A DNA stretch of 64,000 nt from Thermoanaerobaculia bacterium (GCA_038245905.1 JBBRRY010000017.1:7793-71792), one strand, 5' to 3'. Positions 16,648 through 38,207 are shown, counted from the first letter of the stretch. The notes: generated by a model from the letters alone, not told the origin. Made by a program: numbers and translations.

Positions 16648-18453
16648 TCAGGCGCGGCGGAATGCGGCGGCGTGTGCCGATGCGTCGAATGTCCGAAGCG
16701 CGCCTTCGCGCCGCGCCGGGGGAGCCGCGGGAGCCTGAGGCACTGGCGCCGCCGGCTGAGGCGCGGGGGCCGGCGCGGAATGAGGCGCCTCGCGGGGAGC
16801 GGGTGCGGATTCCCGGTGGGTCACAGGAGCCTCGCGAGGAGCGGGCGCGGATTCCCGGGCCGGGGGCGCCTCGCGCGAGCGCTCGACCACGCGGGGCTGC
16901 GGCGCACGCCATCCCGAGTCGTCGTGACGAACCGGCCGTGCCTCCTCGACGCGCCTCGGAATCGGGGCCGGGGCCGGCGAGGAAGGGGAGCGCCACCCAT
17001 CGTCTCGAAGGCGTCGATAGGCGGGGTCCTGGCCAACGCGCACGGCGGTCTTCTTCAGCTCCTCGATCGCTGCCGGCGAAGGCGTGCTTTCGCGGCGGAG
17101 AATCGCCGTCAGGCCCTCGCTCACGGGAGCCCGGCGAGCGCTCTCGGCGCCTGGCAAACGGTGAAGCGCATCCTGGATCGACGCGGCCGGGTTTCCGCCA
17201 CGCTCGAAGCGGAGGGGAGTTGTCGCGATCGTCCCGATCTCACCGGGCCGGAAGCTCACGCGATCCCCGCGCACGATGTCCCGGGCCGGATCCAGCCGGA
17301 CGACGATCCGCCCGGACGGCACGTAGTTCCAGCCGCGCGGATCGATCTGCGAGACTGCGACACGCCCGCGAAGATGCGGGTAGACGGGAACGCGTCCGTC
17401 GCTGACGTTCACGCGGGCGTGCCGGGAACGGGGCTCCCACGAGCCGTAGGTCCCGATCGGGCACCAGCCTATCCAGCCGGGCGTGTAATTCCAGTAGACC
17501 CACGCGGGCGAGTAGTCGTCGCCGGGGCACCACATCCAGCCCAGCATCGAGTCGAAGACCCACGTCCCATAGTGGTACGGGAGCCATCCCCATGGCTCCG
17601 AAGAGACCCACGTGAGGCCCGCAGGCGTCCACCGCCAGTAACCGAGCGCGTACGGCGTCCAGCCGGCGCCCACGCGAGGCCTCCAGCAGGTGCAGCCACA
17701 CGTCGACGAGTACGTCCAGCTTCCAAAGTCGTCGAACGAGGCGTTGTCGTAGTCGTAGCCGAAATCCGAGGAGACGTAACGGGTCGTGTTGCGGCTGTCC
17801 GTCCGGTCGCGCCGTTCCTCGATGAACCGCGCGAAGCGGTCGCGCGGCGAAGCGGACACCTCCACCTCGACGTCGCCGTCGCTGCTCACGAACGCGTATT
17901 CGCCCGCGCGGACGAGGGCGCGTCCGGCCCGGCCCGAGACCTCGACCTTGCCCGACAGAGCGTAGATCTCCGTGCCGCGCCTGCCGGCGTCCACGCGGAA
18001 CAGCGCGCGCGAAGGCGCCAGGATCGTCGCGTCGTCCGTGTCGAGACGCAGGGCGCGCTCGCGCGTCGTCTCTCTCGCCGCCACGTCACGGACCTCGACC
18101 GCCACCGTGCCGCGCGCGAGGAAGAGGAGGTCACGGTCGTCTTCGGCTTCGTACGTGCGGGCCATCCGGTCGAAGCGCAGGTCCGTGTATCCGTCCACGC
18201 GCACCACGTTGCCGTCCGCGAGGACCGCTTCCGCACGCGACCCGACTCCCGTCACGAGGCTGTCTCCCGGGAGAACCGGCATGTTGATCCGGGCCGCGGA
18301 GTCGTCTTCGGCCTTCGAGAGCAGGGAGACGTCGGGCTGTACGTACGAGAGGTACGTGTAGCCCTCCCGCTGGGCGTCCGCGCGACCCGGCGCCAGGGCG
18401 GCGGCGAGAAGGGCGGCTGCGAGAGCGGTGGGCGCCGTCTGGCGGGCGTTCAT
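16648..18453 (-). CDS. Secreted FecR-domain protein with Trp-rich central region and Pro/Ala-rich tail
   Basis: Start MNARQTAPTALAAALLAAALAPGRADA (signal peptide). FecR-like VLPGDSLVTGVGSRAEAVLADGNVVRVDGYTDLRF. W-rich block GYWRWTPAGLTWVSSEPWGWLPYHYGTW. Confidence 0.65.
   Translation of the reverse strand: MNARQTAPTALAAALLAAALAPGRADAQREGYTYLSYVQPDVSLLSKAEDDSAARINMPVLPGDSLVTGVGSRAEAVLADGNVVRVDGYTDLRFDRMARTYEAEDDRDLLFLARGTVAVEVRDVAARETTRERALRLDTDDATILAPSRALFRVDAGRRGTEIYALSGKVEVSGRAGRALVRAGEYAFVSSDGDVEVEVSASPRDRFARFIEERRDRTDSRNTTRYVSSDFGYDYDNASFDDFGSWTYSSTCGCTCWRPRVGAGWTPYALGYWRWTPAGLTWVSSEPWGWLPYHYGTWVFDSMLGWMWCPGDDYSPAWVYWNYTPGWIGWCPIGTYGSWEPRSRHARVNVSDGRVPVYPHLRGRVAVSQIDPRGWNYVPSGRIVVRLDPARDIVRGDRVSFRPGEIGTIATTPLRFERGGNPAASIQDALHRLPGAESARRAPVSEGLTAILRRESTPSPAAIEELKKTAVRVGQDPAYRRLRDDGWRSPSSPAPAPIPRRVEEARPVRHDDSGWRAPQPRVVERSREAPPARESAPAPREAPVTHRESAPAPREAPHSAPAPAPQPAAPVPQAPAAPPARREGALRTFDASAHAAAFRRA
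16787..16882 (-). repeat. Imperfect ~42-bp tandem repeat in the Pro/Ala-rich tail of the FecR-like gene
   Basis: GCCTCGCGGGGAGCGGGTGCGGATTCCCGG (16787-16816) and GCCTCGCGAGGAGCGGGCGCGGATTCCCGG (16829-16858), plus a partial third unit. Encodes repeated RESAPAPREAP. Confidence 0.6.
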
Positions 18454-18619
18454 GTCGGGCCTCCGGGCCATCCTATGCGACCTCCGTACCACTATGGGCG
18501 GCGCCTCTCTCGTCCCCCCGCGGGGACGCTTGACCGCGCCCGGGAAGCCCTGCAATCTCAACGTGCTGGCCGACGCTCCTGAAAAGGGGAGAAGAGCCGT
18601 CCCGTCCTCCGGAGTGCAG

Positions 18620-19135
18620 GTGGCCATTCGAGAAATCGTCAAGTACGGGGATCCGCGGCTCGTCGCGAAGAACCGGGCCGTCGACGTGTTCGACGATCCC
18701 GGCCTCGCCGCCTTGCTTCAGGACCTGAAAGAGACCTGCTGGGCGGCTCCCGGCCTCGGTCTCGCCGCCCCCCAGATCGGGGTGAACCTCCGCGTCGCGA
18801 TCGTCGATCTCTCGATCGGGAAGGATCCGGCCCAGGTCATCGTGCTCGTGAACCCCGTCGTCGTGGACGTGCAGGGGCTCATTCGGGAAGAGGAGGGCTG
18901 TCTCTCCTTTCCCGACATGGTGGAGACGGTCGAGCGGCCCGAGAGAGTGACGGTGGAGGCCCTCGACGCCCTCGGAAAGAAGCAGACGTTCGACGGGCGA
19001 GACCTTCTCGCGCGGGCATTCTGCCACGAGGTGGACCACCTCGACCAGCGGCTCTTCGTCGACCGGCTCTCGTCCCTGAAGAAAGGCCTCCTGCTGCGCC
19101 AGGTCGTCAAACGCCAGAAAAGGGGGGTGTGGTAG
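18620..19135 (+). CDS. def: Peptide deformylase
   Basis: GLGLAAPQIG, EGCLSFP and HEVDHL motifs. GTG at 18620 (or 18614) chosen over the long track start. Confidence 0.92.
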   Translation: MAIREIVKYGDPRLVAKNRAVDVFDDPGLAALLQDLKETCWAAPGLGLAAPQIGVNLRVAIVDLSIGKDPAQVIVLVNPVVVDVQGLIREEEGCLSFPDMVETVERPERVTVEALDALGKKQTFDGRDLLARAFCHEVDHLDQRLFVDRLSSLKKGLLLRQVVKRQKRGVW

Positions 19136-19171
19136 ACGGCGTCAACAGCCACGATGCCGCGACGCCCGACA

Positions 19172-20074
19172 CTACGCTCCGGCTTTCGCGCGCAGCTCGT
19201 CGACGAGGTTGAGCCGGTGGAGGGTGCGGCCGAGGTGCGCGGCGAACGCCATCAAATGCTCGAGCTCGGGTGATTCGCCTGGTGGAGGAAGCGGTCCGCG
19301 CCGATAGAGGCGCAGCGTGCCGAGGAGCTCCTTGCCGCCGAAGACCGGAGCGGCGGTGATGGTCCAGTCCGGGGTGGCATCGCCCGGGAGGCGCGGCGCG
19401 CGCGCCGTGCGCGGATCCTCGTCGAGGCCGAGCGTCGCGACGAAGCCGGGAGGACTTCCGCCCGGCCAGGTGCTGGAGGCGGCCGCGAGCAGGTCTACGT
19501 GGCCCGTGCGCCGCACGTGCAGCGTGACGCCGTCGGCGCCGAACACGGACGCGATCCGGTCGAGGATCGGGACGAGGAGGCGCGCCCGGAAGTCTTCGGT
19601 CGTGACGCCGTCCTCTTCGACCTTCGCGGAGATCTCCTGCTGCAGCTCGAGAATCTGCGTGCGCGCCGTGAGGGCGTCCAGTAGCTCCTTGATGCGAAGC
19701 GCGTTCTTCACGCGCGCCTTCAGCTCGCGGGCCGAGAACGGCTTCGTGACGTAGTCGTTCGCGAGCGCTTCGAAACCCTGCAGGAGGTCTTCCTCCTCAG
19801 TGCGCGCCGTTACGAAGATGACCTGCGTGCCCGCCGTCGCGCCGACGGTCTTGATCCGGCGGCAGACCTCGTAACCGGAGAGATCGGGCATACGCACGTC
19901 GAGGAGGACGACGTCGGGCCGGCGGGCGTCCACTTTCTCGAGGGCCTCGGTGCCGGACAGCGCGCTTTCGAAGTCGCAGCCCAGCTCGTAGGCGATGTAC
20001 GACGCCACCTCGGCCTGGTAAGGGTCGTCGTCCACGAGGAGGAGCAGGGGCGCGGAGGCGGGCGATCGGAACAT
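19172..20074 (-). CDS. Response regulator receiver fused to a GAF-like C-terminal domain
   Basis: LLLVDDDPY...DVVLLDVRMPDLSG...VTKPF receiver, followed by about 150 aa resembling a GAF fold. Confidence 0.7.
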   Translation of the reverse strand: MFRSPASAPLLLLVDDDPYQAEVASYIAYELGCDFESALSGTEALEKVDARRPDVVLLDVRMPDLSGYEVCRRIKTVGATAGTQVIFVTARTEEEDLLQGFEALANDYVTKPFSARELKARVKNALRIKELLDALTARTQILELQQEISAKVEEDGVTTEDFRARLLVPILDRIASVFGADGVTLHVRRTGHVDLLAAASSTWPGGSPPGFVATLGLDEDPRTARAPRLPGDATPDWTITAAPVFGGKELLGTLRLYRRGPLPPPGESPELEHLMAFAAHLGRTLHRLNLVDELRAKAGA

Positions 20075-20201
20075 GGCGACCGAGGGTATAGCAGAACCAG
20101 GGAGCGATCAGGGAGCGCTTTTGCCTGGACCGACCTGCGACAGCGCGGATTCGACCCGATGCGCTAGCGAAATCCCTCGCGGTCGTCGAGAATCGCCCGT
20201 C

Positions 20202-21683
20202 GTGACTCTTCGCCTTTACAACACCATGAGCCGCTCGCTCGAGGAGTTTCGTCCCGTCTACCCGGGAAAGATCGGCCTCTACACATGCGGACCCACCGTC
20301 TACAACCGGGTGCACATCGGAAACCTCAGGACATTCGTCTGGGAAGACGTGATGTGCCGCGTCTTTCGCGCCCTCGGCTACGAGACGACCCAGGTGATGA
20401 ACCTCACGGACATCGACGACAAGACGATCCGGGGCGCGTTGGCCGCCGGGCTGCCGCTGCGCGCGTTCACGGACCTTCACATCGCGACGTTCTTCGAGGA
20501 CCTGAAGACGCTCGGCGTCGAGCCGGCGGCGCTCTATCCGCGCGCCACGGAGCACATCCCCGAGATGGTCACGATCGTCCAGAAGCTCGCCGCCCGTGGG
20601 CACACGTACGAGAGCGACGGATCGGTCTGGTTCCGGATCTCGACGTTCCCGGGCTACGGAAGTCTCTCTAAGATCGACCTCACGGCCGTGAAGCGCGGCG
20701 CGCGCGTGGCCGACGACGAGTACGAGAAGGAAGATGTGCGCGACTTCGCGGTATGGAAGGGAGCGAAGGAGGGCGAGCCCGAGTCCGCGACGTGGGCCAC
20801 GGCGCTTGGCCGCGGGCGGCCCGGCTGGCACCTCGAGTGCAGCGCCATGGCGATGAAGTACCTCGGCGAAACGCTCGACATCCACACGGGCGCCGTCGAC
20901 AACATCTTCCCGCATCACGAGAACGAGATCGCGCAGAGCGAAGGCGCGACCGGGAAACCGTTCGTCCATTACTGGCTCCACGCCGAGCACCTCCTCGTGG
21001 ACGGCGAGAAGATGTCGAAGAGCAAGGGGAACTTCTACACGCTTCCCGACCTCCTCGAGAGGGGCTTCTCTCCGCGCGCGATCCGCTACCTCCTCATCTC
21101 GGTCCCGTATCGGATGAAGCTCAACTTCACCTTCGACGGCCTGAAGGCCGCGACCTCCGCGGTCGAGCGGCTGGAGTCGCTCGACCTGCGGCTCAGGGAA
21201 AGAGAGAAAGAGAAGAACAGTTCTTTGAAAGGGGAAGAGGGGGGGAGAGAGGGATTCGAGGGGCGACTGGCGGAGGCGCGGCGTGCGGTCTTTGCCGCCC
21301 TCGAGGACGACCTCAACACGGCCGGCGCTCTCGGGGCGCTGTTCTCGTTCGTCAAGGCGACCAACGTCGATCTCGAGGCGGGCCATCTGTCGGCCTCCGA
21401 CGCAACCGCGGCGCGCGGTCTTCTCCATGAAGTCGCCGGGAACGTCTTCGGAGTCATTGAAAAGACCGCAGGCGACGATGCGCCCTCTTCACCTTCTCAG
21501 AAATCTTCATCCGAATCCCCCGAATCCGATGATGCGTGGATCCTGGAGCGCATCGAGGCCCGAAAGGGGGCTAGAAAGGCCCGGGATTTCAAGGCCGCCG
21601 ACGCGATCCGCGACGAGCTCCTGGGCAAGGGAGTCATCCTCGAAGACACGCCCCAGGGCGTTCGCTGGAAGAGGAAGCCTTGA
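20202..21683 (+). CDS. cysS: Cysteine--tRNA ligase
   Basis: LYTCGPTVYNRVHIGNLR (HIGH) and KMSKSKGN (KMSKS) motifs. GTG at 20202 chosen. The C-terminal region carries repeat copies N and C. Confidence 0.93.
   Translation: MTLRLYNTMSRSLEEFRPVYPGKIGLYTCGPTVYNRVHIGNLRTFVWEDVMCRVFRALGYETTQVMNLTDIDDKTIRGALAAGLPLRAFTDLHIATFFEDLKTLGVEPAALYPRATEHIPEMVTIVQKLAARGHTYESDGSVWFRISTFPGYGSLSKIDLTAVKRGARVADDEYEKEDVRDFAVWKGAKEGEPESATWATALGRGRPGWHLECSAMAMKYLGETLDIHTGAVDNIFPHHENEIAQSEGATGKPFVHYWLHAEHLLVDGEKMSKSKGNFYTLPDLLERGFSPRAIRYLLISVPYRMKLNFTFDGLKAATSAVERLESLDLRLREREKEKNSSLKGEEGGREGFEGRLAEARRAVFAALEDDLNTAGALGALFSFVKATNVDLEAGHLSASDATAARGLLHEVAGNVFGVIEKTAGDDAPSSPSQKSSSESPESDDAWILERIEARKGARKARDFKAADAIRDELLGKGVILEDTPQGVRWKRKP
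21196..21263 (-). repeat. CT-rich dispersed element, copy N (in cysS, reverse; encodes REKEKNSSLKGEEGGREGFEG)
   Basis: GGGAAAGAGAGAAAGAGAAGAACAGTTCTTTGAAAGGGGAAGAGGGGGGGAGAGAGGGATTCGAGGGG. The core TAG is changed to TTG in the reading frame. Confidence 0.7.
21483..21527 (+). repeat. CT-rich dispersed element, copy C (in cysS; encodes PSSPSQKSSSESPES)
   Basis: CCCTCTTCACCTTCTCAGAAATCTTCATCCGAATCCCCCGAATCC. Confidence 0.8.
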
Positions 21684-21709
21684 CAGTGGCGCGCCACTTC
21701 GGGTCTACT
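21680..21709 (+). promoter_or_regulatory. Candidate sigma70-type promoter for the leader/aro-his-trp array
   Basis: Perfect TTGACA at 21680-21685 (overlaps the cysS stop), an 18-nt spacer, then TCTACT at 21704-21709. Assigned by eye only. Confidence 0.3.
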
Positions 21710-21718
21710 TCCGGAGTC

Positions 21719-21760
21719 ATGATCTTCGTCGCGCGCCACTGGCACGTTCATCACACCTGA
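21719..21760 (+). CDS. Candidate attenuator leader peptide MIFVARHWHVHHT
   Basis: Hand translation: ATG ATC TTC GTC GCG CGC CAC TGG CAC GTT CAT CAC ACC TGA. Four His and one Trp codon, followed by a terminator, directly upstream of the his and trp genes. Confidence 0.55.
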   Translation: MIFVARHWHVHHT

Positions 21761-21832
21761 GTCGGCTGCGCCTCGCGCCGCCGGCCCATAGAGGTTCGGA
21801 GGCACGCGGGTTTTCCAACAAGGTCACCCCAA

Positions 21833-21859
21833 CCCCTCCGGATCGGAGGGGTTTTCGTT
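21833..21859 (+). terminator. Attenuator intrinsic terminator
   Basis: CCCCTCCG-GAT-CGGAGGGG perfect 8-bp stem followed by TTTTCGTTTT. The 3' arm contains the GGAGG that serves as the Shine-Dalgarno (SD) sequence for the TTG start at 21860. Confidence 0.7.
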
Positions 21860-23422
21860 TTGGTCCTCACCGCGGAGAAAACACTTCTCGTCGCGTCCCT
21901 CGCACCGGCTTCTAACGCCGAGGCTCTGGGGGGGCGCGCGGCTCTCGCCGACCTGCCTCCGTCGACGGCTGTCGAGCTGCGCCTGGATGCGATGACCGAG
22001 GCGCCTGCGTTCGGCGCGCTGCGCGCGTGCTTCGAAGGCAGAACGCTCATCGCAACCGTTCGATCCAAAGCCGAGGGCGGCGGGTTCCGGGGGAGCGAGG
22101 AGGAAGAGCGGGATTTCCTAGAAGGTGCCCTCTCTGCGGGCTTCGATCTCGCAGACGTTGAATTTCGCCGCGACCTTGGTACTCGCTTCGCCGGAATACC
22201 TCCTTCTAAGAAGATTTCTTCTCTCCACGACCCCGAAGGGGTACCAGCCGACCTCGACAGCGTCGTCTCGAGGATGCTCGCTTCCCCCTCGCGCTTCGTG
22301 AAAGTCGCGGCGACGGCAAACGATTCCGGCGACGCCCGCCGCCTTCTCGAGCTTCAGGCCGCGAACCCAGGGGGGCGCCTCACCGTATTCGGCATGGGCG
22401 AGGCCGGGATCGCCACGCGCGTCCTCTCGCCCTATCTCGGCGCGGCGCTCGCGTACGGGGCGCTCGTCCCCGGGCGCGCCACGGCACCCGGCCAGCTTCT
22501 TGCGCGCGACCTCAACGAGATCTACGGCGTCGGCTGCGCGCGGAGCGTCTCGCGGCTCTTCGGGATCCTGGGCGGCGTCGTCTCGCACTCCCTCTCTCCC
22601 GCTCTCCACAACGCGAATTTCGAGGCTCTCGAAGAGGACGCGCTCTACGTCCCGTTTGCGATGCGGATGCTCGGGAGGGAGCTCGAGCCCCTCGTCGCCT
22701 CCCTCGACGCGCTCGGCCTTCCTCTCGGGGGCGTCTCGGTGACGATCCCGTTCAAGGAAGAGGCCGCGCTCCTTTCGGGCGCGGCCGAGGGCGGCGAGAG
22801 GGCGGTCAACACGCTCCTGAGGTCGAGCGCCCCGGGCCTGCCGCTCCAGTGGCGCGCGGAAAACACCGACCGTGCGGCATTCGAGGCCGTGATTGAAGAT
22901 GCTTCCGAGAGAGGGAGAACCGAGACGAGCGCGAATGCGCGGGTGGCGATCGTCCTCGGGGCTGGTGGTACGGCACGGGTTGCCGTGGATGTTCTCCGAA
23001 AAAGGGGATTCGGAGTCTTTCTGGTGAACCGAGGCGAGGAGCGTGGCGAGGCGCTTGCGGCTGCCACGGGCGCCCATTACCTTTCTAATAAATCCTCGGC
23101 GCCGTGGCCCGAGGCTGGAGTCATCGTCAACGCGACGGCCCTCGGGCTTCTCCCGGGGGATCCTCTTCCCTGCGAGCAAAATATTCTCCGCCCCGGGATG
23201 CTCGTGATCGACGCGCCGTATCGCGCCGGCGGAACAGAGCTCGTCCGGGCGGCGCGCGCAGCGGGCGCGCGCGTCGTAGACGGCCAGACACTGCTCCTGC
23301 TTCAGGCCGCGGGCCAGGCAACGCTCTTCACCGGGCGGCAGACGAGCCCGCGGGATCTGCTCTCGCGTCTCGCGCCGCGCCTTCGCTCCCTGTTTTCGTC
23401 CTTCGAGGAGTTTTCTCCTTGA
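21860..23422 (+). CDS. aroDE: Bifunctional 3-dehydroquinate dehydratase (type I) / shikimate dehydrogenase
   Basis: N-terminal AVELRLD and SSLHD motifs resemble type I DHQase. C-terminal VSHSLSPALHNANF and NATALGL motifs resemble AroE. TTG start. Confidence 0.82.
   Translation: MVLTAEKTLLVASLAPASNAEALGGRAALADLPPSTAVELRLDAMTEAPAFGALRACFEGRTLIATVRSKAEGGGFRGSEEEERDFLEGALSAGFDLADVEFRRDLGTRFAGIPPSKKISSLHDPEGVPADLDSVVSRMLASPSRFVKVAATANDSGDARRLLELQAANPGGRLTVFGMGEAGIATRVLSPYLGAALAYGALVPGRATAPGQLLARDLNEIYGVGCARSVSRLFGILGGVVSHSLSPALHNANFEALEEDALYVPFAMRMLGRELEPLVASLDALGLPLGGVSVTIPFKEEAALLSGAAEGGERAVNTLLRSSAPGLPLQWRAENTDRAAFEAVIEDASERGRTETSANARVAIVLGAGGTARVAVDVLRKRGFGVFLVNRGEERGEALAAATGAHYLSNKSSAPWPEAGVIVNATALGLLPGDPLPCEQNILRPGMLVIDAPYRAGGTELVRAARAAGARVVDGQTLLLLQAAGQATLFTGRQTSPRDLLSRLAPRLRSLFSSFEEFSP
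22097..22134 (-). repeat. CT-rich dispersed element, copy P (in aroDE, reverse; encodes EEEERDFLEGALS)
   Basis: GAGGAGGAAGAGCGGGATTTCCTAGAAGGTGCCCTCTC. Confidence 0.6.
22191..22226 (+). repeat. CT-rich dispersed element, copy D (in aroDE; encodes GIPPSKKISSL)
   Basis: CCGGAATACCTCCTTCTAAGAAGATTTCTTCTCTCC. Contains the exact 11-mer. Confidence 0.8.
23075..23097 (+). repeat. CT-rich dispersed element, copy E (in aroDE; encodes HYLSNKSS), degenerate
   Basis: CATTACCTTTCTAATAAATCCTC. Confidence 0.55.
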
Positions 23423-25050
23423 AGATCGAGCGGCCCGACCCGAACCTGCCGCGAGGCGTGCAGGCATTTCTCTTCGACGCGGCCGAGCGCCGCCGGAAGG
23501 CGGAAGACTCGGTCGTGCGACGGCTTCAGGAGGCCGGTCTGCGTGAGGTGATTCTCCCCGTCCTGGATTTCGCGGCCCCCTATGCCGGCGTGACGGCCGA
23601 GGGAGACGATCGCCTTTATCGGTTCCTCGACCGGCAGGGGAATACTCTGGCGCTTCGGGCGGACTTCACGCCGATGGCGGCGCGCGTCGTGGCGCCACGG
23701 CTCAGCGCGCTCTCCGGAGCCGTCTCCCTCTTCTACCGCGGAGACGTCGTGCGCGACGAGGAGACTGGTGTCGGGCGCCGGCGCGAGTTCGCGCAGGTCG
23801 GCGCAGAGCGTTACGGCGATGGCCGCCCGGAGGCCGACGGCGAAATGCTCGCGCTGGCTCTCTCCTGCCTCGGAGATCTTCCGGCCGAGCGCCTCAGGCT
23901 CACCCTCGGCTGGTCGGGCCTCCTGGAACGCCTGCTCGCCATACTCGCCCCGGGACTCGAAGTGAACGGCGCGTCCGAACTCGCCGTTGCCTTGTCGGCC
24001 GCGCGCGCGCGGCACATCACGGAGCTGGAGACGCGGCTTTCGACCGCGGGCGCCGCGCCGGCCGTCGCTGCGGAAGCCGCCCGGGCCCTCCTCGTCGGCT
24101 TCGACCCCTCTTCCGATCTCTTCCACTCGACTGCCCTTGCGGGCGCGGCCGCGGAGCTCGCGCGCGCGGTCGCAATTGCGAGGGCCGCCCGGCCCGGTCT
24201 CTCGGTCGTCGTCGACCTTGCCGACACTCCCCAGGCCCCCTATTACACGGGGCTCACGTTCAGCGTGGACGCCGCGAGCGGGGGCGGCACGATTGCCGGA
24301 GGCGGACGGTACGACGGCCTCCTCGGGCGTTTCGGCACGGCGGCGCCCGCGCTCGGCTTCTGTATCGGCCTCGAGGCTCTCGGTGCTGCCGCCGATGTAA
24401 CCGAGAGAGACGCGCGCCCTCTCCGAATCGCGGTCGGGAAGGGCCGGCTCCTGCCGCAGGCGCTCGAGGCGCTCGACGCCGGAGGCGCCTCGTTCGGCGA
24501 GCCGGACGGCCGGCGCCTTCTCGTGCTTTCCTCGGACGGCGCGTTCGAGCTGCTTCTCCTCAAGGACGACGACGTCCCGACCTACGTGGCTCACGGTGGC
24601 GCCGACCTCGGGATCGTGGGGAGCGACCGCGTCCTCGAGAGCGGCGAGGACGTGACCTCCCCCGTGGAGCTTCCGTTCGGCGCCTGCCGCCTCTCCCTCA
24701 TCGGGCGGGCGGGGGAGCCGTTCCGCCCGAACGGCGCGCCCGTTCGCGTGGGAACGAAGTACCGCCGCCTCGCGGCCCGCTATTTCGATGAGCGGAAGAT
24801 CGCCCATGAGATCGTCCCGCTCGCGGGTTCGGTCGAGCTCGCTGCCGCGCTCGGGCTCACGGACGTCGTCGTGGACCTCATCGAATCTGGCTCCACGATG
24901 GCCGCGAACGGTCTCGCCGAGATCGAGACCATCCTCACGAGCCGCGCGACCCTCGTCCTCGGGCGTTCCGCGCTCATCGCCCGCCGGGCCGAGATCGCGG
25001 AGTTCGTCCAGCGCCTCAGGGCTCATGCGGGCAAGGCGCTGACTTCATGA
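23419..25050 (+). CDS. hisZG: Fusion of ATP phosphoribosyltransferase regulatory subunit (HisZ) and short-form catalytic subunit (HisG)
   Basis: First about 330 aa are HisRS-like/HisZ (LRADFTPMAARV, YYTGLTFSV, GGGRYDGLLGRFG). Last about 210 aa are HisG (LRIAVGKGRL...DLIESGSTMAANGL). One uninterrupted ORF. TTGA overlap with the aroDE stop. Confidence 0.8.
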   Translation: MKIERPDPNLPRGVQAFLFDAAERRRKAEDSVVRRLQEAGLREVILPVLDFAAPYAGVTAEGDDRLYRFLDRQGNTLALRADFTPMAARVVAPRLSALSGAVSLFYRGDVVRDEETGVGRRREFAQVGAERYGDGRPEADGEMLALALSCLGDLPAERLRLTLGWSGLLERLLAILAPGLEVNGASELAVALSAARARHITELETRLSTAGAAPAVAAEAARALLVGFDPSSDLFHSTALAGAAAELARAVAIARAARPGLSVVVDLADTPQAPYYTGLTFSVDAASGGGTIAGGGRYDGLLGRFGTAAPALGFCIGLEALGAAADVTERDARPLRIAVGKGRLLPQALEALDAGGASFGEPDGRRLLVLSSDGAFELLLLKDDDVPTYVAHGGADLGIVGSDRVLESGEDVTSPVELPFGACRLSLIGRAGEPFRPNGAPVRVGTKYRRLAARYFDERKIAHEIVPLAGSVELAAALGLTDVVVDLIESGSTMAANGLAEIETILTSRATLVLGRSALIARRAEIAEFVQRLRAHAGKALTS

Positions 25051-26357
25051 TGAAGATCGTCGACGCGGATACGCTTGCGGGCAAGAAGGAGCTGGAGCGG
25101 TTGCTAAAGAGCCGCCGGGGAGCCGCTCCTGACTTCGCGACGCTGAAGCAGGTCCTGCCGATCGTGGAGGATGTTCTGCGAAGAGGGGAGCCTGCGCTCC
25201 GGAAATACGTGAAGTGCTTCGACCCGTTGCGCGGCGCCCCTTCTTACCCTTCTAAGAAGCTCTTGATCACTCCCCGACGTGAGGAGTCTTCTCGGGTGGA
25301 TCCGGCGTTTCAGGCGGCGTTTGTCTTCGCCCGCAAGCGCATCGAGGCTTATCACCGCAAGCAGCTCTCGTCCGTCTCGCCGGGTTTCTCCTTCAAGGAC
25401 TCTCTCGGCGTCTCCTTCGTGGAGAGGCCCACGCCGTTCGATTCGGTGGGCGTCTATGTGCCCGGGGGCCGCGCCTTCTATCCGTCCTCGCTTCTCATGG
25501 GGGTCGTGCCCGCGCGCGTCGCGGGCGTCAGGCGAGTCGTCGTCGCGACGCCGCGCGGGGCGTGGGCGTCGAGCCCCGAGCTCCGGTGGGCGGCGGCCGA
25601 GCTGGGAGTCGACGAGGTGCTCCTCGCGGGAGGGGCCCACGGTATCGCCGGCCTCGTGTCCGTCGCGGGCGTCGCGAAGATCGTCGGCCCCGGGAACCGG
25701 TTCGTCGCGGCGGCGAAGCACCTCGTCTCGGGCCTCGTGGCGGTGGACATGCCGGCAGGGCCTTCGGAAGTCGCAATCCTCGCGTCGGCCGATGCGGACC
25801 CGGCGCTCGTGGCGGCGGATCTTCTCGCGCAAGCGGAGCACGATCCCGACGCAAAGTGCTTGCTGTTTACGAGCTCGAGAAGGCTGGCGGACGCCGTTCG
25901 ATGCGCGGCGCTCTCGCAGATGGATGCCTTCGAAGAGGATTCTTCTTTGATGGTGATGAGAGCGGCCTTGCGCCGCGGTGGGCGGATCTTTCTATTCAAA
26001 GAAATCTCCCGCGCCGCGTCGGCCTGCGCTGCCGTGTTCGCGGAGCACGTTCAGGTCATGGGCCGGTCTGTCGAGCGCTCGGCGGGTTCTCTCTTTCCCG
26101 CTGCCGGAACCTTGTTCATTGGCCCGTCGACGCCGACCGCGCTCGGGGACTACGTCCTCGGCCCGAATCACGTACTGCCCACAGGCGGTGCCGCGCGCAG
26201 CTTCTCGGGTCTCTCGGTGCGCGACTTCCTGCGCTGGGGGCGATCGGTCTCGGCCCCCGTGAAGGCGGCCCGCCGCCTCGCGCCCGCGGCAGCGGTCCTG
26301 GCGCGATTCGAAGGTCTCGTCGCCCACGCGAGCGCGCTCGACCGGAGAGTCCGGTGA
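25047..26357 (+). CDS. hisD: Histidinol dehydrogenase
   Basis: KIVGPGNRFVAAAK, DMPAGPSEV, LLAQAEHD and GPNHVLPTGG motifs. Confidence 0.94.
   Translation: MMKIVDADTLAGKKELERLLKSRRGAAPDFATLKQVLPIVEDVLRRGEPALRKYVKCFDPLRGAPSYPSKKLLITPRREESSRVDPAFQAAFVFARKRIEAYHRKQLSSVSPGFSFKDSLGVSFVERPTPFDSVGVYVPGGRAFYPSSLLMGVVPARVAGVRRVVVATPRGAWASSPELRWAAAELGVDEVLLAGGAHGIAGLVSVAGVAKIVGPGNRFVAAAKHLVSGLVAVDMPAGPSEVAILASADADPALVAADLLAQAEHDPDAKCLLFTSSRRLADAVRCAALSQMDAFEEDSSLMVMRAALRRGGRIFLFKEISRAASACAAVFAEHVQVMGRSVERSAGSLFPAAGTLFIGPSTPTALGDYVLGPNHVLPTGGAARSFSGLSVRDFLRWGRSVSAPVKAARRLAPAAAVLARFEGLVAHASALDRRVR
25237..25275 (+). repeat. CT-rich dispersed element, copy F (in hisD; encodes PSYPSKKLLITP)
   Basis: CCCCTTCTTACCCTTCTAAGAAGCTCTTGATCACTCCCC. 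Contains the exact 11-mer. Confidence 0.8.
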
Positions 26358-27421
26358 CCGGCCGGCCCATCCCGGTCCGCGAGGAGATCCGGTCGCTCAG
26401 GGCCTATCGCCTCGAGTCCGAGGACGCCCCCCCTCTCCGAGCGAAGCTGGACTTCAACGAGTCGCCGTTCGACGTGCCCGAGGAAATCCGCGCGGAGGTC
26501 CTCGCGCGCCTCGCGGCGAAGAGATGGGGCCGCTACCCCGAGTTCGGCGCGCCGCGTCTGAAGAGGGCGGTCGCCGAGGCGATTGGCCGGCGGCCCGAAG
26601 AGATCGTGGTCGGCAACGGGTCTGGTGAGGTCCTTCTCGCGGCGGTCTCCGTCTTCGCGGGGGGCGGCTCTCTCGTCCTTCCGACGCCCACGTTCTCGCT
26701 CTACGGACAGATCGCGGCGATCGCGGCGGCCCGCGTCGTGGACGTGCCGCGCACGGGGCCGGATTTCGAGCTCGTCGAGGACGCATTTCTCGCCGCGGTG
26801 TCCCGGCCGCACGCCGTTCCTCTCGTCTGCTCGCCGAACAACCCGACGGGCGGCGTCGTACGGCGGGAATTCCTGGAGAGGCTGCTCACGGCCGCGCCCG
26901 TCGTGCTCCTCGATCAGGCCTACGTGGATTTCGCGGGGCCCGGCGACGACGGCCTCTCGCTCCTCGATGCCTATCCGAACCTCGTCGTCTTCCGGACGCT
27001 CTCGAAGGCGTACGCGGCCGCGGGCTTCCGGATCGGGTACGCAGTCGCGCCGCCGGAGCTCGCGCGGGAGATCGAGAAGGCCGTCCTGCCGTTCAGCGTC
27101 GACCTCGCGGCCGAGGAGTTGGCGGTCGCCGTCCTCGGGCGTCCAGAGGTTGCGCGGGCCCACCTGGGCAAGATCGTGGCCGAGAGGTTGCGCGTGGCCG
27201 CGGCGCTCACGGCGGCCGGCTGCCTCGTGGCTTCGTCGTCCGCAAATTTTCTCTTCGTGCGTCCGCCGGGCGGCCAGGCGGAGCCGGTCCGCCGGGCGCT
27301 TCTCGACAGGGGAATCCTCGTGCGCGAAATGACCGCGGCGGCGCCCGGGCGCCTCCGTGTTTCGATCGGATCCCGTGAGGAGAACGATCTTTTCCTCGAA
27401 GCGCTTCGGGAGGTGTTATGA
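26354..27421 (+). CDS. hisC: Histidinol-phosphate aminotransferase
   Basis: GTG at 26354 in-frame within track ORF 25562..27421. CSPNNPTG and FRTLSKAYAAAGFRIGY (PLP lysine) motifs. Confidence 0.92.
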   Translation: MTGRPIPVREEIRSLRAYRLESEDAPPLRAKLDFNESPFDVPEEIRAEVLARLAAKRWGRYPEFGAPRLKRAVAEAIGRRPEEIVVGNGSGEVLLAAVSVFAGGGSLVLPTPTFSLYGQIAAIAAARVVDVPRTGPDFELVEDAFLAAVSRPHAVPLVCSPNNPTGGVVRREFLERLLTAAPVVLLDQAYVDFAGPGDDGLSLLDAYPNLVVFRTLSKAYAAAGFRIGYAVAPPELAREIEKAVLPFSVDLAAEELAVAVLGRPEVARAHLGKIVAERLRVAAALTAAGCLVASSSANFLFVRPPGGQAEPVRRALLDRGILVREMTAAAPGRLRVSIGSREENDLFLEALREVL

Positions 27422-28014
27422 GCAGGGTCGGAACAGTCGAGCGGAAGACGAAGGAGACGGACGTGTCCCTGTCGCTGACGCTCGACGGAGCGGGGCGAAC
27501 GGACGTGACTACGCCCGTCGGGTTTCTCTCCCACATGCTCGAGACGATCGCGAAGCACGCGCGCGTCGATCTCACGGTCCGGGCGTCGGGCGACGTGCAC
27601 ATCGACGCCCACCACACGGTCGAGGACGTCGGCCTCGCCTTCGGCGAGGCGCTGGCTCAGGCCCTCGGGTCGCGCGCGGGAATCGAGCGCTTCGGCGAGA
27701 GCCTCGTGCCGCTCGACGAGGCTCTCGCGCGTTCGGTCGTCGACCTCTCTGGCCGGCCGTACATCGTGTTCGAGTCTCCCATCGACAAAGAGCTCCTCCT
27801 TGTCACGAACGACTTCCCGTTCGCGCTCGTCGAAGAGTTCTGGAAGTCCGCGGCGTTTCGCGGCAAGTTCAACCTCCATGTGGACGTGATCCGCGCCCGG
27901 AACGGCCATCACGCGGCCGAGGCTGTCTTCAAGTCGGCCGCGCGCGCGCTGCGCCAGGCCATGACGATCACGGGCTCAGAGGTTCTCTCGACGAAAGGGA
28001 CGCTGACGGCATGA
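27418..28014 (+). CDS. hisB: Imidazoleglycerol-phosphate dehydratase
   Basis: ERKTKETDVSLSLTLDG...DAHHTVEDVGLAFG. 198 aa, with no phosphatase domain. Confidence 0.95.
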   Translation: MSRVGTVERKTKETDVSLSLTLDGAGRTDVTTPVGFLSHMLETIAKHARVDLTVRASGDVHIDAHHTVEDVGLAFGEALAQALGSRAGIERFGESLVPLDEALARSVVDLSGRPYIVFESPIDKELLLVTNDFPFALVEEFWKSAAFRGKFNLHVDVIRARNGHHAAEAVFKSAARALRQAMTITGSEVLSTKGTLTA

Positions 28015-28640
28015 GCGAAGCCCCCGCGCCGGTGGTCACGCTCGTGGACTACGGGGTCGGTAACACGGCTTCCGTCATCCGCGCCTTCCGCCGGCTCGGC
28101 GCCGAGGTGGACTTCACGGCCGATCTCGACCGGGTCGCGGCCGCCCGCCGCCTCGTGCTGCCCGGCGTCGCCGCGTTCGCCCCGGCGATGAACCGGCTGC
28201 TCGAGACCGGCCTCGAATCGGCCGTGCGGGCAGCCGTGAAGCGGGGAGGGCGTCTGCTCGGGCTCTGCCTGGGTTTTCAGCTTCTCTTCGAAGAAAGCGA
28301 GGAGCACGGCGTTCACCGGGGGCTCGGCCTCGTGTCCGGCCGTATCCGGCCCTTCCCGGGCAGCGTGCGGTCGCCTCACGTGGGCTGGAACCGGCTCCTC
28401 ACTCGCCGGCCGGACGGTTTCGTCGCGGGGCTTCAGGACCGGAGCTTCGTCTACTTCGTCCATTCCTTCAGACCCGAGGGCGCCGAAGCCGCGGACGTCG
28501 CGGCGGCCTGCGACCACGGCGGAGAGTTCCCGGCGATCGTGCAGCGCGGGAACGTCTGGGGTTGTCAGTTCCACCCGGAAAAGTCGTCGGAGAACGGCCG
28601 GCTCCTGCTCTCGAATTTTCTCGAGGGGGATCCGGCGTGA
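28011..28640 (+). CDS. hisH: Imidazole glycerol phosphate synthase, glutaminase subunit
   Basis: ATG at 28011 within track ORF 27357..28640. LVDYGVGN, LGLCLGFQLL and CQFHPEKS motifs. Confidence 0.93.
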   Translation: MSEAPAPVVTLVDYGVGNTASVIRAFRRLGAEVDFTADLDRVAAARRLVLPGVAAFAPAMNRLLETGLESAVRAAVKRGGRLLGLCLGFQLLFEESEEHGVHRGLGLVSGRIRPFPGSVRSPHVGWNRLLTRRPDGFVAGLQDRSFVYFVHSFRPEGAEAADVAAACDHGGEFPAIVQRGNVWGCQFHPEKSSENGRLLLSNFLEGDPA

Positions 28641-29422
28641 ACGGCGGCCGGCTTGCGCTGTGGCCCGCGATCGACCTCATGGGCGGCCGCGTGGTCCGGC
28701 TGCTCAGGGGCAAGCGCGAGGCCGTGACGTTCTACGACGAGCAGCCTTCCGAGGCCGCGAGGCGATTTGCGGCGGAAGGCGCCGACGGCATCCACGTGGT
28801 GGATCTCGATGCGGCATTCGGAACGGGGGACAACGAAAGCAATCGGAAAGAGATTGAAGAAATACTTTCTGTTTCGGAGGCTTCCGGGGTGGCAGTGCAA
28901 GTCGGGGGAGGGCTGCGCGCCACCGCGGCCGTCGAAGATTTCTTAGAAGGGGTGAGTACCGCTAGGGCAGTTGTCGGCAGCCTGCCGTTCCTCGACCGCC
29001 CCGCGTTCACACACCTTCTAAGAAAATCTTCCTCTTCCGTCTCGGCCCGCATCGTGGTGGCCCTCGATTGCAAGGATGGCCGTCCGACCGTCCGCGGCTG
29101 GACCGAGGACGCGGGAGCGGGTGACGCCGTGTCCGTGGCACGCGAGATGTGGGGCCTCGGCGTCCGGGCGCTCCTCGTCACGGACGTCGCGTGCGACGGG
29201 GCCATGACGGGCCCGAATCTCGAACTCCTCGCCGGAGTGCGCGCCGTCTTTCCGGGCGAGATCCTGGCGTCCGGCGGCATGCGAGGAGAACGGGATCTCG
29301 ATCCGGTCGACCGCACGCTCGCGGGTGGGCCCCGCGGCGCCATCTTCGGCCGCGCATTGCACGGCGGAGTCACCACCATGGCGAAGCTCAAGGCGGCGCG
29401 CGACCTCGGGAGGCCTTCATGA
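28637..29422 (+). CDS. hisA: ProFAR isomerase (HisA)
   Basis: GTG at 28637. [25 protein letters not shown] and VQVGGGLR motifs. Contains repeat copies L and G. Confidence 0.9.
28934..28960 (-). repeat. CT-rich dispersed element, copy L (in hisA, reverse; encodes EDFLEGVST)
   Basis: GAAGATTTCTTAGAAGGGGTGAGTACC. Contains the exact complement of the 11-mer (TTCTTAGAAGG). Confidence 0.75.
29008..29040 (+). repeat. CT-rich dispersed element, copy G (in hisA; encodes [11 protein letters not shown])
   Basis: CACACACCTTCTAAGAAAATCTTCCTCTTCCGT. Contains the exact 11-mer, read in a different frame from copies A, D and F. Confidence 0.8.
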
Positions 29423-30852
29423 CCCTCGCCGTCCGCGTCATCCCGTGTCTGGACGTCTCGGAAGGCCGCGTCGTAAAGGGCGTCTCGTTCGAAAATCTCC
29501 GCGACGCGGGAGATCCGGTCGAAGCGGCCACGCGCTACGAGGCCGAGGGGGCCGACGAGGTGGCTTTCCTCGACATCGCGGCCGCGCACGAGAAGCGAGG
29601 GACGTTCGTGGGGCTCGTGGGGCGCGTGGCCGAGGCGCTGTCTATTCCCTTCACCGTCGGCGGCGGCGTGCGTTCCGTGGAGGACGCGGACGCGCTCCTC
29701 AAGGCCGGGGCCGACCGGGTCACGGTGAACACAGCCGCGGTCGAGGACCCTTCCCTCATCACGCGCCTCTCCGAGCGGTTCGGAGCGCAGTGCGTCGTCG
29801 TCGCAATCGACGGAAAGAGGCTGCGCGATCCGAACGGCCTCGCGGTGATGCGCGTGACGACTCACGGGGGGAGGCGGCCCGTAGACCGCACGGTCACATC
29901 CTGGGCGGCCGCGGCGGCGGCAGCAGGAGCCGGCGAGATTCTGCTCACGTCCGTCGACGCGGACGGCACCCAGGCGGGGTTCGATCTCGAAATGCTCCGC
30001 GCCGTTCGCTCCGTCGTGGATGTGCCGGTCGTGGCCTCGGGAGGCGCGGGCCGGCTCGAAGACTTCGCGAAGGCGGTTCTCATCGGGGGCGCCGACGCCG
30101 TGCTCGCGGCGTCCGTCTTCCACGACCGCGTCTTCACGATTGGCGCGGTCAAGGAGGCGATGCGGCGTGCCGGCCTCGTCGTGCGCCCCGCTCCGGCCCG
30201 CGCACGTACGCTGCTTCCCCGCTACGACGAGAACGGGCTCGTGCCCGTGATCATGCGGGACGTCGCGACCGGCAGGGTCCTCACGCTCGCGTGGGCGAAC
30301 GCGGACGCGATCGCAAAGACCCGCGAGACCGGCCTCGCGCACTTCTACAGCCGGTCCCGGAAGTCCCTGTGGCGGAAGGGGGAGACGTCGGGGAACATCC
30401 AGCACGTCGCGGGAATTTCCCTCGACTGCGACGACGATGCCGTGCTGTACGACGTGCGCCCGTCGGGTCCCGCCTGCCACACGGGAGCGGAATCGTGCTT
30501 CACGCGCGTGGAGAGCTTCGACTCCTTCGACGTCCATGGCGCAGTCGCCGACGGGCTCGACCTCACCGAACTGTTCGCCGTCGTGAGGAGCCGGAAGGAA
30601 TCGCCGGTCGCCGGCTCGTATACGAGCAAGCTCTTTGACGACGGAATAGCGCGCATCGCACAGAAAGTGGGGGAGGAAGCCGTCGAGACGGCGCTCGCCT
30701 CGGTGACAGGCGACGGCAATGCGCTCGCGGGAGAGGCGGCCGATCTTCTTTATCACCTCGCGGTCCTGCTCACGGCGCGCGGCGTCGCACCGGGCGACGT
30801 CGCCGCGAAACTCGCTGAGCGCCGAGGCGCCGCGAGGCGCGAGAAGCCGTGA
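29419..30852 (+). CDS. hisFIE: Triple fusion: IGP synthase cyclase subunit HisF + PR-AMP cyclohydrolase HisI + PR-ATP pyrophosphatase HisE
   Basis: ATG at 29419. HisF: [15 protein letters not shown]...VLAASVFH. HisI: [18 protein letters not shown]...CHTGAESCF. HisE: [10 protein letters not shown]...[13 protein letters not shown]. One ORF of 477 aa. Confidence 0.85.
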
Positions 30853-32225
30853 GGAATCTCCACCGCCTCGTCGTGGTCGAGAGGCCGGCGGACCTTACGA
30901 CGCCCGTTGCGCTCATGAAGGGCCTTCTTGCCGGCGAGGGGCCGTGCTTCCTTCTCGAATCGGTCGAGGGGGGCGACCGCGTGGCGCGGTGGTCCTTCCT
31001 CGGGGCGTCGCCCTCGGGAGAGATCTCCGGCCAGGATACGGATCCGTTCGCCGCCCTCCGCGCGCTGCCTCGCGGCGAAATGGCGGCAGGCGGGGACGAC
31101 CTCCCTCCCTTCACGGGCGGAGCCGTCGGTTACGCGGGCTACGACGCCGTGAGGCGCCTCGAACGCCTCCCCGAAACGAACCCGGACCCGATCGGGCTGC
31201 CGGACGCGTGGTTCGGGATCTTCGACGCGGTCATCGCGTTCGACCATGTGCGGCACCGCCTTCTCTTCGTGACGCATGCCGAAGAGGGCCGGGAGGAAGA
31301 GGCGCGCGCTCGTCTGCACGCGCTCGAGGCGCGCACCCTCACCCGAGGTGGTGAAACGCGCACAGAGACTCTCTCTTCTCTTACCTTCAAAGAATCTTCT
31401 CCTCGTTCCTCCTACATCGCGGCGGTCGAGCGCGCGAAGGAGCACATTCGGGCGGGCGACGTGTTTCAGGTCGTCCTCTCGCGCCGCTGGTCCGCACCCT
31501 TCGACGGCGACGCCTTCGCTGTCTACCGCGCGCTCCGGTCCATCAGCCCGTCGCCGTACCAGTACTTCCTGAGGACGCCGCACGGCGCGATCTTCGGAGC
31601 CTCGCCCGAGCGACTCGTGCGCGTCGCGGCGGCCCTCGGCGGCGCGGCCGTGGAGACGATTCCTCTCGCCGGCACCCGCGCGCGCGGCGCGACGCGCGAA
31701 GAGGACCTCGCCCTCGAGAAGGAGCTCCTCGCGGACCCGAAGGAGCGCGCGGAGCACGTGATGCTCGTGGATCTCGGGAGAAACGACCTCGGCCGAGTCG
31801 CGAAGGCCGGGAGCGTGCGCGTGGAAGATTTTTTCCGCGTCGAGCGCTATTCCCACGTGATGCACATCGCCTCGCGCGTGACCGGCGTTCTCGCCGAGGG
31901 GAAGGACGCCGTCGACGCTCTCGTGGCGACGTTTCCGGCCGGGACGCTTACGGGAGCGCCGAAAATACGCGCGATGGAGATCATCGAGGACCTCGAGCCG
32001 GTGCGGCGCGGCGCCTACGGCGGCACCGTGGGCTACCTCGACTTCGCCGGAAACCTCGACGTGGCTATCGCGATCCGCACGGCGGTCGTCGCGAACGGCA
32101 TTCTCCACGTGCAGGCCGGCGCCGGCATCGTCGCCGACTCCGACCCCGAGGCCGAAGCGACCGAGTGCGAGAACAAGGCCCGTGCTCTCATGGGCGCCGT
32201 TGCGAAGGCGGGGACGTACCGATGA
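30849..32225 (+). CDS. trpE: Anthranilate synthase component I
   Basis: [23 protein letters not shown] and [15 protein letters not shown] motifs. GTGA overlap with the upstream stop. Confidence 0.94.
31368..31412 (+). repeat. CT-rich dispersed element, copy H (in trpE; encodes [15 protein letters not shown])
   Basis: ACTCTCTCTTCTCTTACCTTCAAAGAATCTTCTCCTCGTTCCTCC. The core TAA is changed to AAA in the reading frame. Confidence 0.75.
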
Positions 32226-37418: not shown

Positions 37419-37419
37419 C

Positions 37420-38184: not shown

Positions 38185-38207
38185 GCTAACACGTTACGGG
38201 GATTCGG

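Follow-up and report, generated by a model that had tools for sequence, protein, structure and literature searches.

Enterobacterial hisL is a short open reading frame (ORF) with clustered His codons, the transcript of which folds into A:B, C:D and E:F helices for termination, as against B:C and D:E helices for antitermination, with the terminator located before the first his gene. In multivalent leaders, such as those of the Escherichia coli thr operon (Thr and Ile) and of ilvGMEDA and ilvBN (Ile, Leu and Val), a shortage of any of the sensed amino acids leads to derepression. Adjacent his and trp genes are known in Actinobacteria. According to a survey from 2010, the attenuators predicted in Acidobacteria were almost without assigned function, with Proteobacteria and Actinobacteria essentially the only sources of known leader-peptide systems (PMC2965389). 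Here, we describe a candidate attenuator between cysS and aroDE in a stretch of 64,000 nucleotides (nt) from a Thermoanaerobaculia bacterium (GCA_038245905.1 JBBRRY010000017.1:7793-71792). This whole stretch is referred to as the window, and coordinates are counted within it.

The spacer between the two genes holds a leader ORF of 13 codons, four of them for His and one for Trp, and his and trp genes lie downstream. An earlier note, made from the sequence alone, had proposed that this unannotated ORF, together with a terminator and an antiterminator, forms a dual His/Trp attenuator, and comparison and folding bear out the core of that proposal, which is very likely correct. The element can be modelled with good confidence as a ribosome-mediated leader-peptide transcription attenuator of the whole aroDE-his-trp supraoperon that responds when charged tRNA-His or tRNA-Trp runs short. 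All 30 relatives that were found through their proteins have kept the ORF, the terminator and the alternative pairings. The positions given earlier for the cysS stop, the leader ORF, the terminator, the GGAGG motif and the TTG start match the sequence to the base. The parts of the element and its flanks are as follows.

20073–21683, + strand: cysS (cysteine--tRNA ligase), the gene upstream of the leader (TIGR00435, E 6.5e-137)
21680–21685, + strand: TTGACA, putative -35 hexamer by conservation, overlapping the cysS stop
21704–21709, + strand: TCTACT, putative -10 hexamer, 18 nt past the -35 and 9 nt before the ATG
21719–21760, + strand: leader ORF MIFVARHWHVHHT with its stop codon, found in all 48 distinct spacers
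21737–21754, + strand: candidate sensor codons CAC TGG CAC GTT CAT CAC (His7 Trp8 His9 Val10 His11 His12)
21733–21743, + strand: segment L (1), GCGCCACTGGC / GCGCCACUGGC, codons 5–9; pairs with A, or with C in free RNA
21761–21771, + strand: segment A (2), GTCGGCTGCGC / GUCGGCUGCGC, beginning directly after the stop codon
21775–21787, + strand: segment B (3), GCGCCGCCGGCCC, partner of A or of C (anti-antiterminator)
21793–21810, + strand: segment C (4), GGTTCGGAGGCACGCGGG / GGUUCGGAGGCACGCGGG, 5' strand of the antiterminator and duplicate of the terminator 3' arm
21833–21844, + strand: segment D (5) plus loop, CCCCTCCGGATC / CCCCUCCGGAUC, terminator 5' arm, of which 21835–21844 pairs with C at 21793–21802
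21844–21859, + strand: segment E (6), CGGAGGGG, then the run TTTTCGTT; terminator 3' arm, holding the aroDE Shine-Dalgarno sequence
21860–37418, + strand: supraoperon predicted to be regulated, from NCBIfam matches and ORF coordinates

The leader reading frame and its putative promoter

The leader ORF reads ATG ATC TTC GTC GCG CGC CAC TGG CAC GTT CAT CAC ACC TGA, with the stop codon at 21758–21760. In the genes of the window, His accounts for 1.6% of codons and Trp for 0.7%. A single copy of the codon pattern CAYTGGCAYNNNCAYCAY is found in the 64-kb window, and none of 100 shuffles gave a match. As a feature of the sequence, the cluster is far beyond chance.

Relatives were gathered in two ways. 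A scan with the AroDE protein, with one genome per species, gave 28 loci in Thermoanaerobaculia/Acidobacteriota metagenome-assembled genomes; 27 of these retain at least part of the spacer 5' of aroDE, and L006 has only the terminator end. Three extra loci came from AroDE homologues of 57–64% identity, giving a total of 30 protein-anchored spacers gathered without any use of the leader sequence. The second way was a DNA pattern made of the ORF core and the first bases of the next hairpin, which matched 28 metagenome contigs. Of these matches, 25 are the cysS–aroDE spacer, and 18 of the 25 copies enter the alignment once duplicates are removed. The core is invariant by construction in sequences found by the pattern, so the argument from constraint rests on the 30 protein-anchored loci. 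The resulting alignment, A2, comprises 48 distinct spacers in about six clades; L003 and L052, where contig ends cut the spacer, were dropped. An earlier and smaller alignment, A1, holds the window and 26 relatives.

The remaining three pattern matches are unrelated His/Trp-rich ORFs (L055:2820-2850, L036:3548-3578 and L058:3369-3399). Those of L055 and L036 have long His/Trp-rich repeats (DWHWHRHDHRHR many times over in the former, YYHYYHHWHHHHWW in the latter), and that of L058 has only a C-terminal CCHWHWHHL.

Alignment of the cysS–aroD spacers, which the earlier note had named as a check, recovers the small ORF throughout and the motif H-W-H-x-H-H in 46 of the 48 sequences, the exceptions being L015 (RWHVHH) and L019 (HWHSH). 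The peptides are 11–13 codons long and come in 31 variants. The start codon is ATG, or GTG once (L032), at a fixed distance from the upstream TTGACA; the stop codon also keeps its position and is TGA in 32 sequences, TAA in 14 and TAG in 2. All differences in length are multiples of three. Codon 6 is CGC, CGG or CGT, and now and then encodes Gly, Leu, Phe or Trp; the His11 codon is CAT in 20 sequences and CAC in 27. Position 10 (V/A/S/G), position 13 (T/S/N/G/A/I) and the N-terminus are free to vary. Fixed start and stop, triplet indels, synonymous His and Arg changes and the retention of H-W-H-x-H-H fit a sensor ORF that is translated better than an RNA with a purely structural role, and by this pattern of change the leader ORF is under coding-type constraint. 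In L045 (666–849, - strand), the leader MKLSLWHWHAHHI contains WHWHAHH, with a second Trp codon at codon 6.

A conserved promoter-like sequence precedes the ORF. Among the 47 distinct sequences that include the upstream flank, the -35 hexamer is TTGACA in 45 and TTGACT in 2. The cysS stop codon (TGA, 21681–21683) lies inside it. In 47 distinct relatives, the final sense codon of cysS is always NCT (CCT, GCT, TCT or ACT, for Pro, Ala, Ser or Thr), and the share of NCT among NCN codons in the genes of the window is only 5–23%. Since NCT is invariant across four amino acids though uncommon in these genes, its T is under selection at the DNA level. The coding end of cysS (21678–21685) seems to be shaped by the adjacent putative promoter, with TTGACA intact across the stop.

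At the position of the -10, all clades have similar hexamers (TCTACT, TCCAAT, TTCAAT, TACCTT or TTTACT). TTGAC and the start codon are separated by exactly 39 nt (18 + 9) or 36 nt (17 + 7), and the intervening 17–18 bases are variable. A sigma-70 consensus scanner called no promoter here, a miss that is put down to the absence of A at position 2 of the -10-like hexamer; with the scanner silent, the promoter call rests on conservation and spacing. A Shine-Dalgarno core at -14 to -7 of the leader ORF was found in 0 of 47 sequences. The window has a GGAG only 2 nt from the leader ATG, which is not conserved, and thus no usable Shine-Dalgarno sequence. With the putative promoter so placed, the transcript probably begins no more than about 4 nt from the start codon, if not at that codon itself, and the leader ORF is probably leaderless or nearly so. 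It is this combination, the lack of a Shine-Dalgarno sequence and a start codon 7–9 nt after a conserved promoter-like -10, that points to leaderless translation. In three Acidobacteria genomes, leaderless genes were predicted to make up 9.7–19.4% of all genes (PMC3160421), and leaderless initiation is plausible in a phylum predicted to have 10–19% of such genes. In L032 (2826–3009), the GTG start lies exactly 7 nt past the hexamer TTCAAT, which is canonical leaderless geometry.

The spacer between the -35 and the -10 (21686–21703) is almost always a GC-rich palindrome or hairpin; in the window its sequence is GTGGCGCGCCAC, and such elements occupy this place in L005, L009, L010, L023, L032 and L045 too. 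The clade 1 version also shows partial complementarity to leader codons 4–6 and to the bases just 5' of the ATG. It could be a hairpin of the cysS 3' end, or a silencer of the leader ATG in read-through transcripts. A hairpin of the promoter spacer with the leader (21684–21697 with codons 4–8), which appears in the minimum-energy fold of 21684–21870, was rejected as a part of the switch: about 60% of its cells are paired, against 31–56% in slid controls, and it lies upstream of the predicted transcription start.

Alternative pairings and the position of the ribosome

Segment L is similar both to B, of which it is a near copy, and to D; A is similar to C and E, so that neighbouring segments are complementary. 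The last helix of this chain is the terminator that the earlier note had described, CCCCTCCG (21833–21840), GAT and CGGAGGGG (21844–21851), then TTTTCGTTTT. A terminator scan calls a GC-rich stem of 10 pairs at 21831–21853, followed by the T-run TTCGTTTT, and this is the best-scoring terminator-like site within 20000–39000. The U-run adjoins the TTG start of aroDE, an arrangement that is conserved. A promoter could not fit in between, and all transcripts of aroDE-his-trp therefore have to pass through the hairpin. The 3' arm also contains GGAGG (21845–21849), 10 nt before TTG 21860, as had been pointed out; it is the only Shine-Dalgarno sequence for aroDE, and GGAGG, 10–11 nt and TTG are conserved in all sequences. 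Since this Shine-Dalgarno sequence is inside E, termination would be coupled to translational masking.

The antiterminator had been read as 8 base pairs (bp) between TTCGGAGG (21795–21802) and CCTCCGGA (21835–21842). It is present, and extends to 10 bp as C:D, with GGTTCGGAGG (21793–21802) paired to CCTCCGGATC (21835–21844). Upstream of it, the earlier layout holds in that there is alternative pairing; the full arrangement is a chain of six segments (L:A, A:B, B:C, C:D and D:E), from which the A:B hairpin (21761–21785, directly after the stop codon) and B:C had been missing. In all loci found through their proteins, the stop codon is followed by 1–2 nt and then CCGGC. Two candidates had been put forward as the anti-antiterminator. 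One of them, CGCGCGCC (21730–21737) pairing with C, finds a counterpart in the L:C pairing of the free-RNA minimum-energy fold, which the window shares with 13 of the 26 A1 relatives, but the conserved element is B:C. The other, GCGCCTC (21768–21774), falls in the A arm and its loop, is GCGCTTC in most relatives and has no support as a distinct element.

All five helices are stable in every sequence. In sub-folds of 27 sequences, the energies are -12 to -22 kcal/mol for L:A, -16 to -20 for A:B, -16 to -27 for B:C, -21 to -31 for C:D and -14 to -21 for D:E; duplex energies over all 48 sequences are similar (-12 to -21 kcal/mol for L:A). The helices fall into two sets. In the termination set (L:A, B:C, D:E), 93.4% of cells are paired on A1 and 93.0% on A2, with 38–49% in slid controls, and in the antitermination set (A:B, C:D) 91.2% and 90.1%, with 22–51% in slid controls. 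Over the 48 sequences, either set reaches at least 90%, compared with 26–49% for slid controls. By helix, the proportion of paired cells is 92.5–96.7% for L:A, 86–88% for A:B, 93–94% for B:C, 94% for C:D and 91–92% for D:E. On A2, the covariation score of both sets exceeds all 500 shuffles. On A1, that of the termination set does so as well, and that of the antitermination set was reached by 2 of 500 shuffles. By these measures, both of the predicted, mutually exclusive folds are conserved.

Individual changes follow the same pairings. The terminator of L015 has a compensatory change from C-G to U-A, and in 11 sequences a C.C mismatch in A:B is replaced by G-C. In clade 3 (L023 and L024), segment C has diverged to GGCUCGGAGGG, and both of its partners, B and D, have followed. 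Here, C:D carries a compensatory change from UC/GA to CU/AG that reaches the terminator loop; two of the compensated C:D pairs use loop nucleotides, on which the terminator itself places no constraint. Clade 3 C pairs with its own B at -24.9 kcal/mol and with its own D at -22.1, and with the B and D of other clades at -14 to -19 and -13 to -14, respectively. For most other comparisons between clades, the cognate and chimeric duplexes differ little, because the cores are conserved, and only clade 3 is informative.

Whether ribosome position could select between the two sets was approached by folding. Folding with a masked leader had also been named as a check in the earlier note. Equilibrium minimum-energy folds with a masked ribosome footprint do not flip cleanly between terminator and antiterminator by themselves, because the terminator is very stable and A:B is no more stable than B:C. 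A difference is seen when the best terminator-containing fold is compared with the best antiterminator-containing fold (ddG, the energy of the former minus that of the latter, as the mean over the 48 sequences for each ribosome position). The mean ddG is -6.4 kcal/mol for free RNA, -0.7 for a ribosome stalled with Trp8 in the A site, +0.1 for a stall at His12 and -11.1 for a ribosome at the stop codon, which gives the strongest terminator bias. In every one of the 48 sequences, a stalled ribosome favours the terminator less than a ribosome at the stop codon does, and a modelled stall on the His/Trp codons amounts to about 6–11 kcal/mol towards antitermination. Because the two folds are isoenergetic during a stall, the 5'-to-3' order of synthesis, with A:B made before C and C:D before E, should decide the outcome.

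The mechanism proposed from these features would work as follows. Transcription would start at ATG 21719 or a few nt before it, and the leader would be translated without a Shine-Dalgarno sequence. When both His and Trp are plentiful, the ribosome would reach the stop codon and cover L and A; B:C and D:E would form, transcription would end at 21852–21859, and the aroDE Shine-Dalgarno sequence would be locked within the D:E hairpin. When His or Trp is short, the ribosome would stall on H-W-H(-x-H-H) and cover L only, which would let A:B form. This would leave C free to capture D before E is made; no terminator would arise, E would present its Shine-Dalgarno sequence, and expression of the 14 genes downstream would follow. 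A leader that is not translated, for example in read-through from cysS, would fold into L:A or L:C with B:C and D:E, and would terminate. At the level of sequence, the locus thus combines an ORF of end-product codons, a terminator, a mutually exclusive antiterminator and a ribosome-dependent anti-antiterminator, the last of these being computational, with a kinetic trap assumed.

The supraoperon and the weighing of other explanations

The unit downstream of the leader is 15.6 kb long and consists of 14 tightly packed genes, assigned by NCBIfam matches and ORF coordinates.

21860–23422, + strand: aroDE
about 23419–25050, + strand: hisZG
25047–26357, + strand: hisD
about 26354–27421, + strand: hisC
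27418–28014, + strand: hisB
about 28011–28640, + strand: hisH
about 28637–29422, + strand: hisA
about 29419–30852, + strand: hisF-hisIE
30849–32225, + strand: trpE
about 32222–32791, + strand: trpG
32788–33828, + strand: trpD
33879–35390, + strand: trpCF
35380–36603, + strand: trpB
36600–37418, + strand: trpA

The first gene, aroDE, encodes an AroD-AroE fusion of 520 amino acids, and TTG 21860 is the earliest possible start of its ORF. Three further fusions are present (hisZ-hisG, hisF-hisIE and trpC-trpF). The junctions between genes overlap or abut, including that of trpE, the start of which overlaps the hisF-IE stop; the sole gap is a purine-rich stretch of 50 nt (33829–33878) 5' of trpCF. 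A scan of the supraoperon for terminators found none comparable to that of the leader. The order cysS, leader, aroDE-hisZG-D-C-B-H-A-F/IE-trpE-G-D is shared with L062 and L063, which represent two other clades, and cysS is the upstream neighbour in all related loci. In L062, the gene caller leaves a gap of 75 nt between hisF-IE and trpE (L062:18889-18962), perhaps because the trpE start was called too far downstream; inspection of this gap found no leader-like ORF and no terminator. Further upstream in the window (18428–20074), a gene for peptide deformylase (def) and a divergent gene with response-regulator and GAF parts precede cysS. This neighbourhood is kept in most of the clades examined (L031, L033, L062 and L063), and L032 has a peptidase gene in place of def.

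Several points weigh against an attenuator that senses both amino acids. The -10-like hexamers, TACCTT excepted, are without the canonical A at position 2. The covariation is modest, since the cores are nearly invariant, and the structures were derived from the same sequences on which they were tested, which favours them over slid controls. Segment L contains TGG together with the CAC codons on either side of it, and the invariance of these codons could reflect RNA pairing and not sensing. Even with A free, B:C equals or exceeds A:B in stability once C has been transcribed; the model would require A:B to be kinetically trapped, as is usual for attenuators. Finally, with a footprint of 12 nt a ribosome at His11 or His12 would cover part of A, although this does not happen with a footprint of 9 nt. 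Of the candidate sensor codons, H-W-H are the best placed, and possibly only these are effective.

As an alternative, the four His codons could sense tRNA-His while TGG is kept as part of the CACUGGCAC strand that pairs with A (GCCGG), in which case the trp genes would be co-expressed without Trp sensing. TGG has no synonym, which makes selection on the codon inseparable from selection on the RNA, and it is situated within the fully conserved part of L:A (pairs 60–64 with 82–86); there are also four His codons against one Trp codon. We nevertheless regard such a His-only attenuator as unlikely. The Trp codon is flanked by the two best-placed candidate sensor codons, the second TGG of L045, at codon 6, is outside the conserved L:A core, and the seven trp functions, in six ORFs, have no other visible regulatory region, the start of trpE overlapping the hisF-IE stop. 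Moreover, Trp codons, read by a rare tRNA, are effective stall sites in known trp leaders such as E. coli trpL. Sensing of Trp by its single codon is the least certain part of the attenuator reading. A plain cysS terminator, or control of translation alone through sequestration of the Shine-Dalgarno sequence, with the ORF incidental or an independent micropeptide such as a His-rich metal binder, is improbable. The hairpin lies 150 nt past cysS, which has no other obvious terminator, and a plain cysS terminator would fit this; aroDE expression must nonetheless read through it, there being no room for a promoter after the U-run, and the conserved C duplicate, B:C and A:B would have no role. A micropeptide is at odds with the variable N-terminus and positions 10 and 13, and with a length of only 11–13 residues. 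The location of the aroDE Shine-Dalgarno sequence in the terminator 3' arm speaks for translational control, and mycobacterial leaderless poly-Cys ORFs act by just such sequestration (bioRxiv 10.1101/834739); translational control is, however, compatible with attenuation and already a part of the model proposed here.

Two further explanations would take the sensing away from the codons. It is very improbable that the nascent peptide is the sensor, in which case HWHxHH, like TnaC with Trp, would bind free His or Trp and arrest the ribosome at the stop codon or close to it, so that A stays covered and termination is enforced. In favour of this, conservation at the amino-acid level extends to the order H-W-H-x-H-H and to its fixed spacing from the stop codon, and a ribosome held at the stop gives the strongest terminator bias. 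However, known arrest peptides are much longer, for example the 24 residues of TnaC, and 11–13 residues are shorter than the exit tunnel. L:A pairing explains the conserved order equally well, and codon sensing accounts for everything without an extra assumption. That a riboswitch binding a ligand, a tRNA or a protein (T-box-like or TRAP-like) is at work, with the ORF a coincidence, is a possibility to which we give hardly any weight. In other phyla, T-boxes and TRAP do control his and trp genes (PMC9413887, PMC4027176). In the whole window, though, no Rfam family matches at gathering thresholds, and in 21400–22100, with E up to 10, there are eight hits at chance level, none to an amino-acid-operon leader; His_leader (RF00514), Trp_leader (RF00513) and T-box (RF00230) were matched in neither scan. 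Specifier motifs, T-box motifs and (G/U)AG repeats are all absent from the element, and a riboswitch would leave the signatures of ORF translation unexplained.

Comparison with described leaders

The predicted element is an attenuator of ordinary mechanism that belongs to a new family. What is new is the lineage, the sequence family, the mix of His and Trp codons that mirrors a fused aro-his-trp operon, and the probable leaderless arrangement. The earlier note knew of no leader with mixed His and Trp codons before merged operons. A literature search likewise found no mixed His and Trp leader, no attenuation of a his-trp supraoperon and no characterised attenuator in Acidobacteria, although its coverage was partial and such absence is not proof; leaders for several amino acids (thr, ilv) and adjacent his and trp genes are known, which narrows the claim. 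The leader is, on balance, probably the first attenuator to integrate two amino acids of unrelated pathways (His OR Trp) through a single leaderless peptide for one aro-his-trp supraoperon, and a new cis-regulatory RNA family, confined to Thermoanaerobaculia, that extends ribosome-mediated attenuation to Acidobacteriota.

If this is true, the fusion implies that two amino-acid pathways that consume phosphoribosyl pyrophosphate (PRPP) are co-regulated as one unit. It would also provide a clean case of classical attenuation from a phylum that has been little studied and is mostly uncultured, and it would suggest that a sensor can be re-coded upon operon fusion to report both end products, a natural OR gate made by codon choice. 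For annotation, the rule would be to read the cysS–aroDE spacer as a promoter, a small ORF and a conditional terminator, all of which are missed by gene callers and Rfam. The mechanism itself is textbook, and the gain is in breadth and evolution, not in principle.

In its start region, the leader resembles the mycobacterial poly-Cys small ORFs (bioRxiv 10.1101/834739) and the leaderless leader peptides of Corynebacterium and Streptomyces, in which the sensor ORF lies at or near the transcription start, as is predicted here, and has no Shine-Dalgarno sequence. In the present leader, it is promoter geometry that suggests leaderless status. Furthermore, the mycobacterial Cys elements were shown to act on translation, whereas the leader described here has a canonical terminator with a U-run as well.

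In its switching logic, it resembles the six-segment hisL attenuator of Salmonella and E. coli (RF00514): a stall, arrival at the stop codon and a lack of leader translation are predicted to have the same outcomes as there. There is, however, no detectable homology in sequence or structure (Rfam, E up to 10). hisL has seven consecutive His codons, in contrast to four interrupted His codons and one Trp codon here; the present leader has no Shine-Dalgarno sequence and is probably leaderless, and its unit adds aroDE and all trp genes. hisL belongs to Gammaproteobacteria, and this leader to Acidobacteriota. Similar to E. coli trpL (RF00513), it has its Trp codon a few codons before the stop, follows the 1:2/2:3/3:4 logic and places the terminator directly 5' of the first structural gene, but it has one Trp codon amid His codons, six segments and not four, and no match in Rfam.

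The thr and ilv leaders are alike in that the codons of a single leader peptide sense several amino acids. Those leaders, however, serve one branched pathway, whereas the His and Trp pathways are separate and share only PRPP. Here, the mixed set of codons mirrors the physical fusion of two operons together with aroDE.

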